A stretch of DNA of 64,000 bases from a virus (Duplodnaviria > Caudoviricetes), in the IMG/VR virus record IMGVR_UViG_3300042291_001013; one strand, written 5' to 3'. Positions 4,576-59,321 of this stretch are shown here, piece after piece. Numbering within the stretch: position 1 is the stretch's first letter; each line of letters starts with the position of its first letter. The notes under the pieces were generated by a model. That model was not told the DNA's origin. It did no database searches and was given only the letters and a program-made list of their open reading frames with translations. Both the position numbers and the translations under genes were made by a program.

Positions 4576-5076
4576 TTATTCTTTTTGCGCTTTTTGGCCT
4601 TTGCCAATGATGCGCTCTAGTAGATCATTGCGACTCAATACCACGCCGTGCGCTGTTTGTGTGGCAGCTTCGGGGTCCTTGGCTTCAAGTGCCTGCTGTT
4701 GTTGATCCAACCGCATTTTTTTCATTTGTAAATCAATCATCTTGAGTTTTTTGTCTAGCTTGGCTGTTTTTGCTGTGATAGCATGCCCTAGCATATTGCT
4801 GGCAACACCAAAGATTTCGCTGGCAAATCTTGAATCCACTTGCATGCCAAGATCCATGAGATCTTTGTAGCTGGATTTTGCTAGATCACTCAGCTCGTCC
4901 ATTTCTGTATCAGTGGCATCTAGACCCTTGACAGCAGGTAATGCATTGTCTATTTTATCAATAGCGTCGTCTAGAGCTTGCAGGGTTTCTTTGTTGGTGG
5001 AAAGTGCAGGTAGAGCAAGGTCTACTTCTTCTTCAGTTGGGGGCAGGTCAAAAAGTTCTTCAAGTTTGCGAGTCAT
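4576..5076 (-). CDS. gp16: Terminase small subunit (T4 gp16-like)
   Basis: 166 aa helical protein (MTRKLEELFDL...LMDLGMQVDSRFASEIFGVA...KKLKMIDLQMKK), next to gp4. Confidence 0.6.
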   Translation of the reverse strand: MTRKLEELFDLPPTEEEVDLALPALSTNKETLQALDDAIDKIDNALPAVKGLDATDTEMDELSDLAKSSYKDLMDLGMQVDSRFASEIFGVASNMLGHAITAKTAKLDKKLKMIDLQMKKMRLDQQQQALEAKDPEAATQTAHGVVLSRNDLLERIIGKGQKAQKE

Positions 5077-35825: not shown

Positions 35826-36413
35826 TTAGAGTTCCTTTGTGTTATTTATACGGTTTAAGAAGTCTTCCATGGGCATGTGAACCAAGTTTACAATACCCTG
35901 CAAGCTGGATAAATTTGCTGTGGTTTTTCCTTGAACTCTAAAAAATCCACATTTGGGAAAATCTTTCATGACTCGTTGCATCTGGCGTTCCCAATTGCCG
36001 GTGTATGTGGGGTTTGATGCGCTTTTTTTGTAAAATTCTGTGTCAGCATACACATTGTTGAACTTGCCTGTTTGAGTTGGACCCATGTCAAACCCAACAA
36101 GATAGATTGCTCTGTGTCCATCCAGCGCGGCTTGTCCCACAGCAATGGGTCCTGAGCTGTAGCCAAAATAGTCTTGAGCTATGCGTCTGGCGCCAGTATC
36201 GGGCAAGGGTTTTCTTGTGTAGTGTATGTGAGTTTGACTGTACCCATCTTGTTGGATACGCAAGCTAATGGGAGCATCAGTACTGATCAGCACATCTGGT
36301 TCAAACTCTTTGTAGATAGCGTTGCATCCGTAGACACGCCCGCAAGTTTTTAACACTGCTAAATCAACTTCTTTGCGGCTGATGCCGTTACCAAGTACAA
36401 ATGCTGGGCCCAT
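35826..36413 (-). CDS. MptE/Maf-like (DUF115) glycosyltransferase-related protein
   Basis: AFVLGNGISR...VYGCNAIY....PD.LISTD...SSGPIA...A..GH..IYLVGFDM. Confidence 0.6.
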   Translation of the reverse strand: MGPAFVLGNGISRKEVDLAVLKTCGRVYGCNAIYKEFEPDVLISTDAPISLRIQQDGYSQTHIHYTRKPLPDTGARRIAQDYFGYSSGPIAVGQAALDGHRAIYLVGFDMGPTQTGKFNNVYADTEFYKKSASNPTYTGNWERQMQRVMKDFPKCGFFRVQGKTTANLSSLQGIVNLVHMPMEDFLNRINNTKEL

Positions 36414-36461: not shown

Positions 36462-37211
36462 TTAAGAAGTAACGTTCTGTATCAAAGCCACGTTGATAGT
36501 GGTTTGTGCAGTACCAGACTTGATAACTGAGCCTTCATCAGTAAAGAAGTTGGCCACTTGACGTGTGTCAGCAACAACTTCTGCCGCAGTGAATCCATTT
36601 CCGCCTTCAAAGCCCAACAAGAATTTGTTGGACAACTTGGAAATAAACACTTCAGATGAAGCGTCATCAATATAGCTGATGCTCATCAATCCCACTGTTG
36701 GGGTTGCAGAATTTGTCAAAACACACACACCTACAGAATTAACGGTACCCGAACCTGCTCCGCCAACTGAACTGGCAGTGAACACAGTGCCTACACCAAA
36801 GTTACCGGGTGCGCCAGCGGCTGTCCAATCAGTGGTGCCCACAGACACAATTTGATAAGCCTGGCCAACAACAAAACTTCCGTCGTTGACACCAGTAACA
36901 TCACCCACTAGATATTTGCGAGAACCTTTTTGACGGATGATATAGCCTTGTGCCACACCAATACCTGTGCCCGAAGGGTTGGCAATGTTAACAGTAACGT
37001 CAACACGTGGATTGGTTGCGCTTGGGGTATCTGTAGGGCCTGCGCCGCCAACAACACCAAGATATTGAGTGCCGTTTAGAGTTTGAACTGGGCTGTTAAA
37101 AACAGGATTTGTTAAACTGTTGAAGTTAGGATAGCCAAGATCCACGCCAACGGCTGCGCCGCTGTTGCCTGATCCAGTGCTTGATTTTTGTATTTTTAGA
37201 GGACGACCCAT
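36462..37211 (-). CDS. Hypothetical protein, probably an abundant virion (decoration) protein
   Basis: 249 aa Gly/Thr/Val-rich; strong SD AAGGAGA, own late promoter and terminator. Confidence 0.6.
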   Translation of the reverse strand: MGRPLKIQKSSTGSGNSGAAVGVDLGYPNFNSLTNPVFNSPVQTLNGTQYLGVVGGAGPTDTPSATNPRVDVTVNIANPSGTGIGVAQGYIIRQKGSRKYLVGDVTGVNDGSFVVGQAYQIVSVGTTDWTAAGAPGNFGVGTVFTASSVGGAGSGTVNSVGVCVLTNSATPTVGLMSISYIDDASSEVFISKLSNKFLLGFEGGNGFTAAEVVADTRQVANFFTDEGSVIKSGTAQTTINVALIQNVTS

Positions 37212-37297
37212 TTTGTTTTCTCCTTAAAGAAGTCCGATGCGAGTTCTAGTCGCTACGCTGTGGGTATTAGTCTCAGCATAAAACACCCTATTGTGTT
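37212..37297 (-). ncRNA. Candidate structured cis-regulatory 5' leader (pseudoknot plus hairpins)
   Basis: GGGUG/UACCC and AUGCUG/CAGCGU interleaved as an H-type pseudoknot; GCGA-CUAGAAC-UCGC hairpin; CUUCU/AGGAG hairpin over the SD. Confidence 0.45.
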
Positions 37298-37347
37298 GAC
37301 AAGTATTTAGCAAAAATGTAAAATAGCATAGCCTAGGAGCGTAAATA
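37296..37347. promoter_or_regulatory. Divergent promoter cluster: late box on - (37304-37309), sigma70 on + (37296-37324), late box on + (37342-37347)
   Basis: TTGACA-N17-TAAAAT overlapping CTAAATAC on the opposite strand; GTAAATA 5 nt before ATG 37353. Confidence 0.6.
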
Positions 37348-37352
37348 TCCCT

Positions 37353-38501
37353 ATGAATACTAACGAACTTATTGAAGCTGGCAACCAGCATCGTGCCAGT
37401 AACGAACCTGAAAAAGCCTTGCAATGTTATGCCATGGCCTTTGTGCAAGATCCTGACAGTGCGGCTGCGTTTAACAACTACGGAAACGTCATGCGTGAAA
37501 TGGGTCGCCCTGAAAGTGCTGTGCCGTTTTTACAGCATGCGGCTATTCTTGATCCCAAAAACGTCACAGCACATTTTAATCTTGCAGTGACTTATTTGCT
37601 CATGGGCGACTATCAACGTGGTTGGCCACAATACGAGCATCGTTGGGACTACGAGCACTTGGCTGGCACTGAGCCCAAGTTCTCACAACCTCGCTGGCGT
37701 GGCGAAGACATTCGAGACAAAACTATCTTGGTTGTGGGCGAACAAGGGCACGGGGACAACATACAGTTTTGCAGATTTATCTACAATCTGCATGCCATGG
37801 GTGCCCGAGTCAAACTGCAAGTAACCGACGGGATGATTCCATTGCTAAACACCAGCAACATCATGGAATGGGTTGGCGGGTACAACGATGACCCAGGTGA
37901 ATTTGACCTATGGGTTCCCATAATGAGTATCCCAGGTATCCTGGGAATTACCTTAGATAACTTGCCACCAATACAGAGTTATCTCAATGCGCTGCCTAAT
38001 CTTTCTCGAAACTGGCAGGAACGACTGGGGCCAAAACTTCGCATGCGTGTGGGCTTCTCCTGGAGTGGACGTAGAGACGCTTGGCTCAATCAACACAAAG
38101 GTGTGCCGTTCCCTGTGATACTGGAAATGATCAGAGCCAACCCTGAATACGAGTGGATCAACTTGCAAGTTGATGCTACTGATGACGAGGAGCTGGCCTT
38201 GAGTGATGCTGGTGTGACTCGTTATCCCGGAGCCATTACCAGCTTTGCTGACACAGCGGCCTTGATGATACACTTGGACGTGGTGATCAGTGTGGACACT
38301 GCTATCACACACTTGGCCGGTGCCCTGGGCAGACCAGCTTGGGTTATGCTCAATGCTTATGCCACTGACTGGCGTTGGTTACTCAAACGTGATGACAGTC
38401 CTTGGTACTCCAGTGCCAGACTGTTTAGACAGCCCCGGATAGGAGACTGGGAAAGTGTTACCAAGAAGATTGCTCAATATCTTTCATGGTTCAAAATTTA
38501 A
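37353..38501 (+). CDS. TPR-repeat GT-B glycosyltransferase (GT9-like)
   Basis: N-terminal TPRs (AAFNNYGNVMRE.G...A), then ILVVGEQGHGDNIQFCRF, VGFSWSG, DLVISVDT-like LDVVISVDTAITHLAGALG.P.WVML, DWRW. Confidence 0.85.
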   Translation: MNTNELIEAGNQHRASNEPEKALQCYAMAFVQDPDSAAAFNNYGNVMREMGRPESAVPFLQHAAILDPKNVTAHFNLAVTYLLMGDYQRGWPQYEHRWDYEHLAGTEPKFSQPRWRGEDIRDKTILVVGEQGHGDNIQFCRFIYNLHAMGARVKLQVTDGMIPLLNTSNIMEWVGGYNDDPGEFDLWVPIMSIPGILGITLDNLPPIQSYLNALPNLSRNWQERLGPKLRMRVGFSWSGRRDAWLNQHKGVPFPVILEMIRANPEYEWINLQVDATDDEELALSDAGVTRYPGAITSFADTAALMIHLDVVISVDTAITHLAGALGRPAWVMLNAYATDWRWLLKRDDSPWYSSARLFRQPRIGDWESVTKKIAQYLSWFKI

Positions 38502-56890: not shown

Positions 56891-58426
56891 TTAATTAAAT
56901 CCCATAGCATCAGCTATTTCTGGATGGACCCGGGCAAAGTTTTCGCCCCTTATGTTATCTACCAATTTGATGTTTTTAACAAAATCTTGACCGTCGCTCT
57001 GCAACAAGGAATTTTTAACCACATCTAATACAAAATTCAATCGTTGTTGATGAATTTCTGGTAAACCAGAATTGGCCAAACGATTAATTACCAGTTGTTT
57101 TGCTCGGGGGGTTAGCCGTCTAATACACATCCAGGATGGGGTCTGTAGTATGTTGTAAAAGTAATCATCAATACCTTGACTTAACAACCATTGTATCAGT
57201 TCTGGAAGATACAGCACGTTTTGCACATTTACTGTGATTGATATGCCCATAGTTAGACCAGTATTAGACATGAATTTTTTAAGATTGTTTTGTAGTTGAT
57301 CCCATGTGGCGCCTGACCGTTGATACTCAAACCTTTGATCAATGTCGTCAATGCTCATGGTTATAGTCAATCGATGAAATTGATTAGCACGATCGAACAC
57401 GTCATGATACTGTGTGCCATTTGTTACAAATTCAAAAATGCAATCTTTACTAAGATTGTTATCAATAAGATATTGCATAAATTCTAGGTTCTCTTTGATC
57501 ATCAAAGGCTCACCGCCGAGAAATTCAAAATTGCGTAGTTGCGGGATTGCCTTGATTTGGTCAAAGAACATTCCACGATGTTTTTTCCAATTGTTGTTGA
57601 TTAACATTGTATACACTGGATTGTTTTTGTACTCTTCAGAGTTATTGGCAAGTTTTTCTGTGGCAATAGAACTGCTGAAATCTTCGCTACAAATTCTACA
57701 TTTGAGATTACAAAGGTTGCCAAGATGACCGCCAATGAATCCAATATTATGATCTGAATCAGACTCCCAATCAATGTGACCCCAAATATTTTGTAATTTA
57801 AATCTAGTGAGTTGACGTTTACTCAACCCACCACTGTTTTCAATAGAGGTACACTTGGAACAACCTGATGGTACCTTGCCCTGTCTAAATTCTTCTCTCA
57901 GGGAATTCATGTGTTTGCTATTAACAATTTCTTTTATTGTATGCTGGCGTATGTTAAAATCTTGATTGTTGTTGTCTCTGAGATTGCCTGAAAATTCACA
58001 ACATAGCTGTGTAGTTCCGTCGGGTAACACATGAATTCCACTCCAGGCATGAGCACACATGTGATTGTTGTTGTTAAACATTGGCCTGGCTGTTTCAACT
58101 GTGTTGTGCTTGTTACCTTGAGCTTGCTGTACTACCCTAATAGGTTCAACCAAAGATTCAAAATATTCCTGGGTCTCAGATTGATTGGTAATCACAGAAA
58201 CAAAATACGGAGATATGTCAATGTATTGCAGTACGTTAACAATATGATCCAGCGTGGATCTTTGTACAGGAGAAAAATTATAAAAAATAAACCGATCTTC
58301 GCTGTTGTAAACCGGCTTATAGTGAGGGATCAACTCTTTGTACAAAGTAGAACTTGGCTGGTGTTCTAAATCTTCAATCCATACTACAGCTATTTCGTTG
58401 TAAGTACCGGCCATTGTGTTAGTCAT
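56891..58426 (-). CDS. Radical SAM protein with N-terminal SPASM-like domain
   Basis: C..AW...H...DG..QLCC (SPASM-like) preceding LGNLCNLKCRIC and FLGGEP, TNGT. Confidence 0.85.
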   Translation of the reverse strand: MTNTMAGTYNEIAVVWIEDLEHQPSSTLYKELIPHYKPVYNSEDRFIFYNFSPVQRSTLDHIVNVLQYIDISPYFVSVITNQSETQEYFESLVEPIRVVQQAQGNKHNTVETARPMFNNNNHMCAHAWSGIHVLPDGTTQLCCEFSGNLRDNNNQDFNIRQHTIKEIVNSKHMNSLREEFRQGKVPSGCSKCTSIENSGGLSKRQLTRFKLQNIWGHIDWESDSDHNIGFIGGHLGNLCNLKCRICSEDFSSSIATEKLANNSEEYKNNPVYTMLINNNWKKHRGMFFDQIKAIPQLRNFEFLGGEPLMIKENLEFMQYLIDNNLSKDCIFEFVTNGTQYHDVFDRANQFHRLTITMSIDDIDQRFEYQRSGATWDQLQNNLKKFMSNTGLTMGISITVNVQNVLYLPELIQWLLSQGIDDYFYNILQTPSWMCIRRLTPRAKQLVINRLANSGLPEIHQQRLNFVLDVVKNSLLQSDGQDFVKNIKLVDNIRGENFARVHPEIADAMGFN

Positions 58427-59321
58427 TTGTGTCTAAACTGCTTGTAACCGTTCCGCTCATGGCCGCCATTGAATGTTTGCCAGAGTTCTGTCTGGTCCAT
58501 GAAGGATTCAGTCCGTTCATTTCCAGAATGTCATCACGGATGTTTTGATTTTTCTTTTCAATGTTCAAGATACGAGTAAAGCTATTAGTGATAGCGGCAG
58601 TATAATACGCAAAAGGGTTCTGCGATTTTGACTCGTCAAATTGCAATCCAATTTGGCTGAGCTGTAACAGGGCCTGTCCCCGCATTTCTTCGTTGTATGT
58701 GTATCCACGCCAGTTACTCCTTGTAGCATATCTTTCGCACAGTTTCATAAACATCATGGCCAGCTTGCGGGTCATGTTGCCATGTTCTCTACTGAACTCA
58801 CCAGTTTGTAAATCGCCTTTCCAGTGACTACGTCCCACAATAAACGGGACTTTATCTTTGTCTAAGCGATAGTGTTCAAATGGGGGGAAATTTAATCGCA
58901 CATGATTCATGTCCAGCACAGGCTCTTCAACCAGGTCAGCCAGTGGATCATCTTCTGTAGCGTCATCTAGATCTAGAATGTCTTCTAGTTTTCTGCGCTT
59001 GGCCTCGGCCTTGGTAATTTTTTTAGGCGCCTTGGGAATATGATCCCAGCAAGTGATACGAAACACAATGTCTGCGTTGGGTATTTTTTTGGGGTCTACT
59101 ATGGTACCTTCACGCTTGAGTCGGTCAGCACGATTGCGACGTGCTTCGGCCACAGTGCGTTGATTGATTTTGTCCAGGCTGGGTAAAATCATATCATACT
59201 GATGATCTAGTTCTCGATCCTGGTACCAACAGTATGTGTTTTTGCTGTGATGTATTTCTTTTAAGATATCTCTGTTGTTGAGATAGTTCACGCGAGGTGC
59301 AGTTTTTGGCAATAAAGTCAT
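58419..59321 (-). CDS. gp55: Late transcription sigma factor
   Basis: NYLNNRD.L.EI...LCERYATRSNWRGYTYNEEM...QFDE.KSQNPFAYYT.AI.NSF.R.L..EKK. Confidence 0.9.
   Translation of the reverse strand: MTLLPKTAPRVNYLNNRDILKEIHHSKNTYCWYQDRELDHQYDMILPSLDKINQRTVAEARRNRADRLKREGTIVDPKKIPNADIVFRITCWDHIPKAPKKITKAEAKRRKLEDILDLDDATEDDPLADLVEEPVLDMNHVRLNFPPFEHYRLDKDKVPFIVGRSHWKGDLQTGEFSREHGNMTRKLAMMFMKLCERYATRSNWRGYTYNEEMRGQALLQLSQIGLQFDESKSQNPFAYYTAAITNSFTRILNIEKKNQNIRDDILEMNGLNPSWTRQNSGKHSMAAMSGTVTSSLDTND

Follow-up and report, generated by a model that had tools for sequence, protein, structure and literature searches.

A probable start-codon pseudoknot in the freshwater-2 leader of a jumbo-phage virion-protein gene

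The leader RNA described here is, with practical certainty, a member of the freshwater-2 family (Rfam RF02980), and covariation among about 200 relatives makes it highly probable that the loop of its second hairpin pairs with the start codon region of the following gene. We analyzed it within a 64,000-nucleotide stretch of DNA (IMG/VR record IMGVR_UViG_3300042291_001013), hereafter the window, which is part of the genome of an uncultured T4-like jumbo phage. In a cmscan search, positions 37209..37298 of the minus strand matched the full freshwater-2 model (positions 1-84) with 67.8 bits against a gathering cut-off of 49.9 (E 3.5e-8), and a permissive Rfam scan of 37150-37360 yielded nothing else of weight beside it. 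An initial annotation, made from the letters alone, had given the sequence and coordinates of the leader correctly, on the minus strand ahead of the open reading frame 36462-37211. It had taken the RNA to be unassigned, which the Infernal scan it proposed shows to be wrong. Its description of a cis-acting structured leader with a pseudoknot is supported by the relatives, though the pseudoknot is a different one; RF02980 itself carries the Rfam type Cis-reg.

The locus is a further, ordinary member of a catalogued RNA family whose function is unexplained. The motif was reportedly first described by Weinberg et al. in 2017. It is not named in the main text of PMC5737381, and a literature search, whose coverage mostly lay outside subscription papers and the original supplement with its drawing, returned no paper naming freshwater-2 RNA or RF02980 and none on a phage start-codon pseudoknot of this motif. 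What we add to freshwater-2 is the proposed loop-to-start pseudoknot, the link to late promoters and the single regulated protein family. A motif catalogued without a function would thereby gain a concrete mechanism, in which an RNA loop follows a Gly2 to Ala2 change in the protein, and the RNA becomes linked with late promoters and with a single, unnamed family of virion proteins in T4-like jumbo phages. The features referred to below, all on the minus strand, are as follows.

37304..37309 (-): T4-type late promoter box TAAATA (present upstream in 200 of the 202 freshwater-2 copies with full flank)
37209..37298 (-): freshwater-2 RNA motif, RF02980 (cmscan; the only strong match locally)
37282..37297 (-): P1, variable 5' hairpin, arms 37297-37293 and 37286-37282 (100% paired)
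37254..37280 (-): P2, 7 bp, first stem of the pseudoknot, arms 37280-37274 and 37260-37254 (100% paired)
37261..37265 (-): predicted 5' strand of the pseudoknot, ACCCA, at the 3' end of the P2 loop and abutting the 3' arm of P2 (covaries with codon 2)
37239..37253 (-): P3, 4 bp (3 in some copies), directly after P2 (double changes)
37249-37243 (-): P3 loop CUAGAAC, 7 conserved nt (78 of 89 protein-selected copies)
37220..37225 (-): Shine-Dalgarno sequence AAGGAG, in the long connecting loop of the pseudoknot (sequence)
37206..37210 (-): predicted 3' strand of the pseudoknot, UGGGU, formed by the last two bases of AUG and codon 2 (complementarity to the loop)
36462..37211 (-): 249-aa protein of an unnamed jumbo-phage virion-protein family (HMM core; PA5oct homologue)
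58419..59321 (-): late sigma factor, gp55-like, the likely reader of TAAATA (PHROG 12791, E 7e-76; PHROG 234)

Hairpins and start-codon pairing

Judged by comparison of relatives, the conserved fold consists of three hairpins (P1, P2 and P3) and a pseudoknot between the P2 loop and the start codon region. We tested the pairing of the stems in 36 leaders gathered via the encoded protein, and P1, P2 and P3 were each paired in 100% of them, with double changes. In P1, an A-U pair is replaced by G-C in 15 of the 36 leaders; some distant copies, such as L088, L154 and L188, are without this hairpin. P2 is near-invariant in sequence and carries double changes in 18 of the 36, its variable pair being G-C in 81, A-U in 59 and U-A in 41 of 190 leaders. 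P3 shows double changes at three of its four pairs. Within the P3 loop, U2, A5 and A6 occur in 89 of 89 copies, bases that the search pattern itself required. The leader ends with the Shine-Dalgarno sequence at 37225-37220 and the ATG at 37211, and the linker from P3 to the ATG measures 14-29 nt across 190 leaders. Single-sequence folding gave an unremarkable energy (z about -1); the structure is beyond chance, the support being comparative, through the Rfam match and the compensatory changes, rather than energetic.

As an observation on the P3 loop, its pattern N-U-R-R-A-A-N (37243-37249, minus strand) recalls a tRNA T-loop or U-turn, with the first base usually C and not U. A pairing of this loop with a UUC in the linker was dropped, as it is absent from many copies. 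A hairpin predicted in the near clade between the Shine-Dalgarno sequence and codons 3 and 4 was likewise rejected; it is invariant there, and impossible in genes starting with Ala-Arg-Ala or Ala-Arg-Ser.

All stems named in the initial annotation can be drawn in this single sequence, and the covariation test in the leaders of homologues, which it had suggested, separates them. Its AUGCUG/CAGCGU stem is P2 and its GCGA/UCGC hairpin is P3, both paired in every one of the 36 leaders with compensatory changes. Its pseudoknot stem GGGUG/UACCC is not conserved: only 59% of cells were paired among the 36 relatives, with at most one double change, the outer pair formed in 9 of 36 leaders, and the 5' strand overlaps the 3' arm of P1, a hairpin the annotation had missed. 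The CUUCU/AGGAG hairpin over the Shine-Dalgarno sequence is kept in the near clade, but shows no double change and is found in only 84 of 190 leaders. The pseudoknot supported by the relatives uses the same loop bases (ACCC) as the discarded stem, but with a different partner, the start codon and codon 2. Its stem abuts P2 and leaves P3 and the Shine-Dalgarno sequence in a long loop, which is ordinary H-type geometry. Pseudoknots are never displayed in cmscan output, and the freshwater-2 model stops at the AUG, so that the varying +5 base (and +4 to +6 in general) lies outside it.

The case for the start-codon pseudoknot comes from changes in codon 2. The open reading frame after nearly every freshwater-2 copy begins M-G/A-R. 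At its 3' end, the P2 loop mostly reads CCCA, or this word with a C-to-U replacement; CCCA is complementary to UGGG of the AUG and a Gly codon. With Ala (GC-) in place of Gly (GG-) at codon 2, the loop acquires the matching G: in the pooled set, 42 of 51 Ala-start copies have it, compared to 4 of 157 others. Counted by clusters at 30% protein identity, the matching G is present in 10 of 11 Ala clusters and in 0 of 16 Gly clusters (p 1.3e-6). Comparisons of nearest relatives gave 20:0 in favour with one tie, many of these pairs being weak matches. A strict tree test left only 7 supported independent pairs, 5.0 in the same and 0.7 in the opposite direction (median p 0.22); with such poor alignment of the proteins between subfamilies, the pairs are few and significance is not reached.

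Selecting copies by one partner and scoring the other led to the same pattern. Among copies picked only by their AUG-GC start, a G-containing loop was present in 15 of 24 Ala-start types versus 1 of 69 Gly-start types. Conversely, copies picked only by loop sequence had an AUG-GC start in 13 of 14 cases from metagenomes and in 11 of 14 and 10 of 10 from viral sets (which overlap and include new lineages), against a base rate of 3 in 107 unselected copies. Cognate duplexes of loop and start scored better than all 10,000 permutations, and the complementarity of the loop along the mRNA peaks at the AUG. When leaders were picked by protein alone, 89 of 93 carried the motif, and 85 of these 89 can form at least four contiguous loop-to-start pairs. 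Pairing occurs in two registers, GCCA with UGGC and, in one clade, UCC/GGA, which changes to AGC/GCU, a double change. One genome holds tandem paralogues 1.7 kb apart (L336 and L337), each with its own freshwater-2 leader and each leader matching its own start (UGCCA/AUG-GCA and ACCCA/AUG-GGU). C-to-U variants of the loop still pair with G, and since G-U pairs are strand-specific and the partner is a start codon, we rejected a DNA-level element.

There are exceptions: the compensating G is missing from nine Ala-start copies, a mismatching G is present in three distinct Gly-start copies, and L395 has no usable loop. In all genuine copies among 43 matches, position +4 is a G. As MGRP is also kept in family genes that lack the motif, conservation of AUG-GG alone is no evidence for pairing; the N-terminus appears to be fixed at the protein level, with the RNA loop following it, and the argument is carried by covariation, not by conservation. 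The pairing offers a compensatory test that involves a single base pair.

A likeness to TPP riboswitches (RF00059) had led to the proposal that GGGUG/UACCC is half of a TPP aptamer, sensing HMP or TPP. The likeness is truly present at the level of a few short words in this one sequence, and GGGUG/UACCC equals its competitors in local stability, so that in this lineage it might occur as a minor alternative fold. As a conserved feature, however, the model is already refuted by the comparisons, and we give it almost no credence. In addition to its poor conservation, the stem competes with the covarying P1 and with the start-codon stem, and its third loop of 1 nt makes a poor H-type geometry. Only 5 of 190 leaders contain all four TPP-like words; CUGAGA is present in 22 and UGAGA in 29, the last within a variable loop. 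The likeness appears where the variable pair of P2 is by chance U-A. The Rfam scan of 37150-37360 found no TPP match at E<=10. Unlike TPP riboswitches, the leader has no P4/P5 pyrophosphate arm, no three-way junction and no thiamine gene behind it, its consensus fold being a row of side-by-side hairpins. In TPP aptamers, a conserved UGAGA after P3 forms the pocket for the pyrimidine ring (PMC2258182); this element is not conserved in the leaders.

The regulated gene and its late promoter

The 249-aa protein encoded at 36462..37211 has a basic N-terminus (MGRP-), a β-rich core of about 110 aa and variable inserts. HMM comparisons show that the proteins downstream of freshwater-2, which range from 117 to more than 500 aa, share this core. 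Homologues occur in PA5oct, Atu_ph07 and Phosso, and the one in PA5oct is annotated as structural by ESI-MS/MS, in support of the earlier suggestion that the leader precedes a virion gene. The 249-aa protein had no Pfam or PHROG match and a poor predicted fold as a whole (pLDDT 43), whereas the minimal, 117-aa member of the family was predicted with confidence (pLDDT 91). This core model had no significant match in the PDB (best Z 3.9, to an SH3/Tudor-like half), which by itself does not establish a novel fold, and none to any RNA-binding protein; in BFVD, it matched only proteins of jumbo phages and uncultured phages. The core of this virion-protein family has no close solved structure. It is not basic overall.

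All freshwater-2 copies precede this one family, and in each of five large genomes a single motif lies beside a single family gene. Two of the downstream proteins (L207 and L217) align poorly with the core; they have no Gly-start relative in BLAST, their loop is not compensated, and the leader has possibly been captured by another gene. Three tandem copies (L437, L446 and L449) are without a leader. The homologues in PA5oct, Atu_ph07 and Phosso have short leaders without freshwater-2, yet keep MGRP, as do four motif-less metagenomic family genes. RF02980 had no match above cut-off in Vibrio 2.275.O, Phosso, PA5oct and Serratia BF, and blastn of the leader against cultured phages yielded short Shine-Dalgarno-type matches only. 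As cultured phages carry the gene without the motif, the protein family can do without freshwater-2. Short words complementary to AUG-GG lie near the gene start in PA5oct, Atu_ph07 and Phosso (L376, L377 and L378) and may be due to chance; the one in Atu_ph07 shares bases with the beginning of the late box and would be carried only by longer read-through transcripts.

The window encodes a Gp23 capsid protein, tail tube, sheath and head-closure proteins, and the late sigma factor. A search for RegA returned no match anywhere, controls included. Its closest cultured capsid proteins, at 62-66% identity, are those of Vibrio 2.275.O, Sinorhizobium Phosso, Pseudomonas PA5oct and Serratia BF, and the protein of 36462..37211 was found also on a 361-kb contig. 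The TAAATA box just upstream, together with the gp55-like sigma gene, marks the RNA as a T4-type late transcript leader with a predicted start. We presume this start to be at about 37298, just before P1, from the offset of T4 late promoters. The distance from TAAATA to the ATG is 92 nt here, versus 4-29 nt for the nearest box of 13 other box-bearing genes of the window, which for late leaders bears out the earlier remark that this is the longest leader.

Possible modes of action

The leading idea is that of an autoregulatory protein-binding site, one of the two options raised in the initial annotation. On sequence evidence, we lean towards freshwater-2 being a translational operator, in which a protein stabilizes the pseudoknot and represses synthesis of the virion protein. 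Analogy suggests, more tentatively, that this protein may be the product of the gene itself. The comparisons bring out the hairpins, the loop-to-start pairing and the fixed place between a late promoter and one gene family; stabilization by a protein and entrapment of the 30S subunit would be added to these. The phage late sigma factor would start the mRNA just after TAAATA and the leader would fold into P1, P2 and P3. Pairing of the P2 loop, through its 3' end, with the start codon and codon 2 would then create an H-type pseudoknot that stacks on P2 and holds P3 and the Shine-Dalgarno sequence in its long loop. The start-codon stem of 4-5 bp, weak alone, would be stabilized by a protein reading the near-invariant P2 and the P3 loop. 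The 30S subunit could then bind the Shine-Dalgarno sequence but not engage the AUG, an entrapment as in E. coli rpsO/S15. Free, unassembled virion protein would be the most economical ligand and would repress its own synthesis. A bound partner is suggested because P2 and the P3 loop are conserved beyond the needs of pairing and the start-codon stem is short; with the motif tied to a single structural gene, the simplest logic is feedback by product that has not been assembled. If autoregulation is true, it would reveal a way for such phages to keep an accessory virion protein in step with the capsid supply, and would provide a compact RNA-protein switch.

Against the operator reading stand a protein core that is neither basic overall nor significantly similar in fold to an RNA-binding protein, the cultured phages that carry the gene without the motif, the non-significant tree test, and the uncompensated or mismatching copies together with L395. 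Several known systems can be compared. In T4 gene 32, a leader pseudoknot located upstream nucleates cooperative coating by the single-strand-binding protein. Freshwater-2 shares the setting with it, a pseudoknot in a leader of a T4-like phage that is linked to control of translation; unlike there, the pairing involves the start codon and the gene is structural. In E. coli rpsO, S15 stabilizes a pseudoknot and traps the 30S subunit, according to the model of autogenous entrapment (PMC3985624). As in that operator (PMC3985624), a leader loop pairs at or past the start codon, joining leader and early coding bases with the Shine-Dalgarno sequence in an extensive connecting loop, a likeness that we derive from covariation with an underpowered tree test. 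Unlike in rpsO, the loop here contains the extra hairpin P3, the pairing covers the AUG itself and the gene encodes a virion protein; the permissive Rfam scan of 37150-37360 gave no match to a ribosomal-protein leader. Compared to freshwater-2 as catalogued, the leader has the same three hairpins, conserved P2 and P3 loop, and Shine-Dalgarno sequence and AUG at the 3' end. A phage assembly protein that regulates its own translation has a precedent in the scaffolding protein of P22 (10.1101/2022.12.13.520362).

The same pseudoknot could also work without any trans-acting ligand, as a built-in rate setter or mRNA stabilizer, with P1 shielding the 5' end and the start-codon stem fixing or delaying translation relative to the major capsid genes. 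All structural evidence fits this as well, and the complementary words that we noticed by eye in the three motif-less cultured phages would agree with it, chance matches though they may be; since the sequence of P2 and of the P3 loop is kept more strictly than base pairing alone demands, a sign of recognition or tertiary contacts, we regard this reading as rather unlikely. Conservation of this kind, in a compact core with a pseudoknot over the initiation site, would suit a riboswitch in which the P2-P3 core is the binding site for a small molecule or ion signalling the state of the infected cell. Binding would fix the loop on the start codon, with the loop-to-start pseudoknot as the expression platform, as in compact pseudoknot riboswitches. 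The resemblance of the P3 loop, inferred from its pattern, to a U-turn or T-loop-type element (motif description in PMC2258182) is in line with this, and the output of a virion surface protein would then be tuned to the state of the infected cell. Every copy, however, precedes one virion-protein family and not a metabolic or transport gene, and the motif is read late in infection, which makes a riboswitch very improbable in our judgment.

Finally, the fold might activate translation, the pseudoknot or a bound factor presenting the Shine-Dalgarno sequence in the loop, recruiting the 30S subunit and raising the yield of an abundant virion protein. The Shine-Dalgarno sequence does lie outside the conserved helices, and a reference listed in PMC3985624 states in its title that the rpsO pseudoknot is required not only for regulation but also for efficient initiation. 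Here, the AUG itself lies within the conserved pairing, which must open before initiation, so that we consider activation improbable.

Surrounding genes

The regulated gene is flanked by a TPR and glycosyltransferase-9-like gene (37353-38501, plus strand) and by a weakly sialyltransferase-like gene (35826-36413, minus strand), which may form a virion glycosylation module. The gene starting at 37353 is divergent from the freshwater-2 leader, and the TPR gene is upstream in several near relatives too. At the ATGs at 5076, 14944, 37353, 43744 and 45525, TAAATA lies only 4-7 nt upstream, and these genes are probably read from leaderless mRNAs. Elsewhere in the window, at 51602-51738 on the minus strand, there is a Polynucleobacter-1 RNA (RF01718, 118 bits) that starts right at the stop codon of a GIY-YIG gene (51739-52173).
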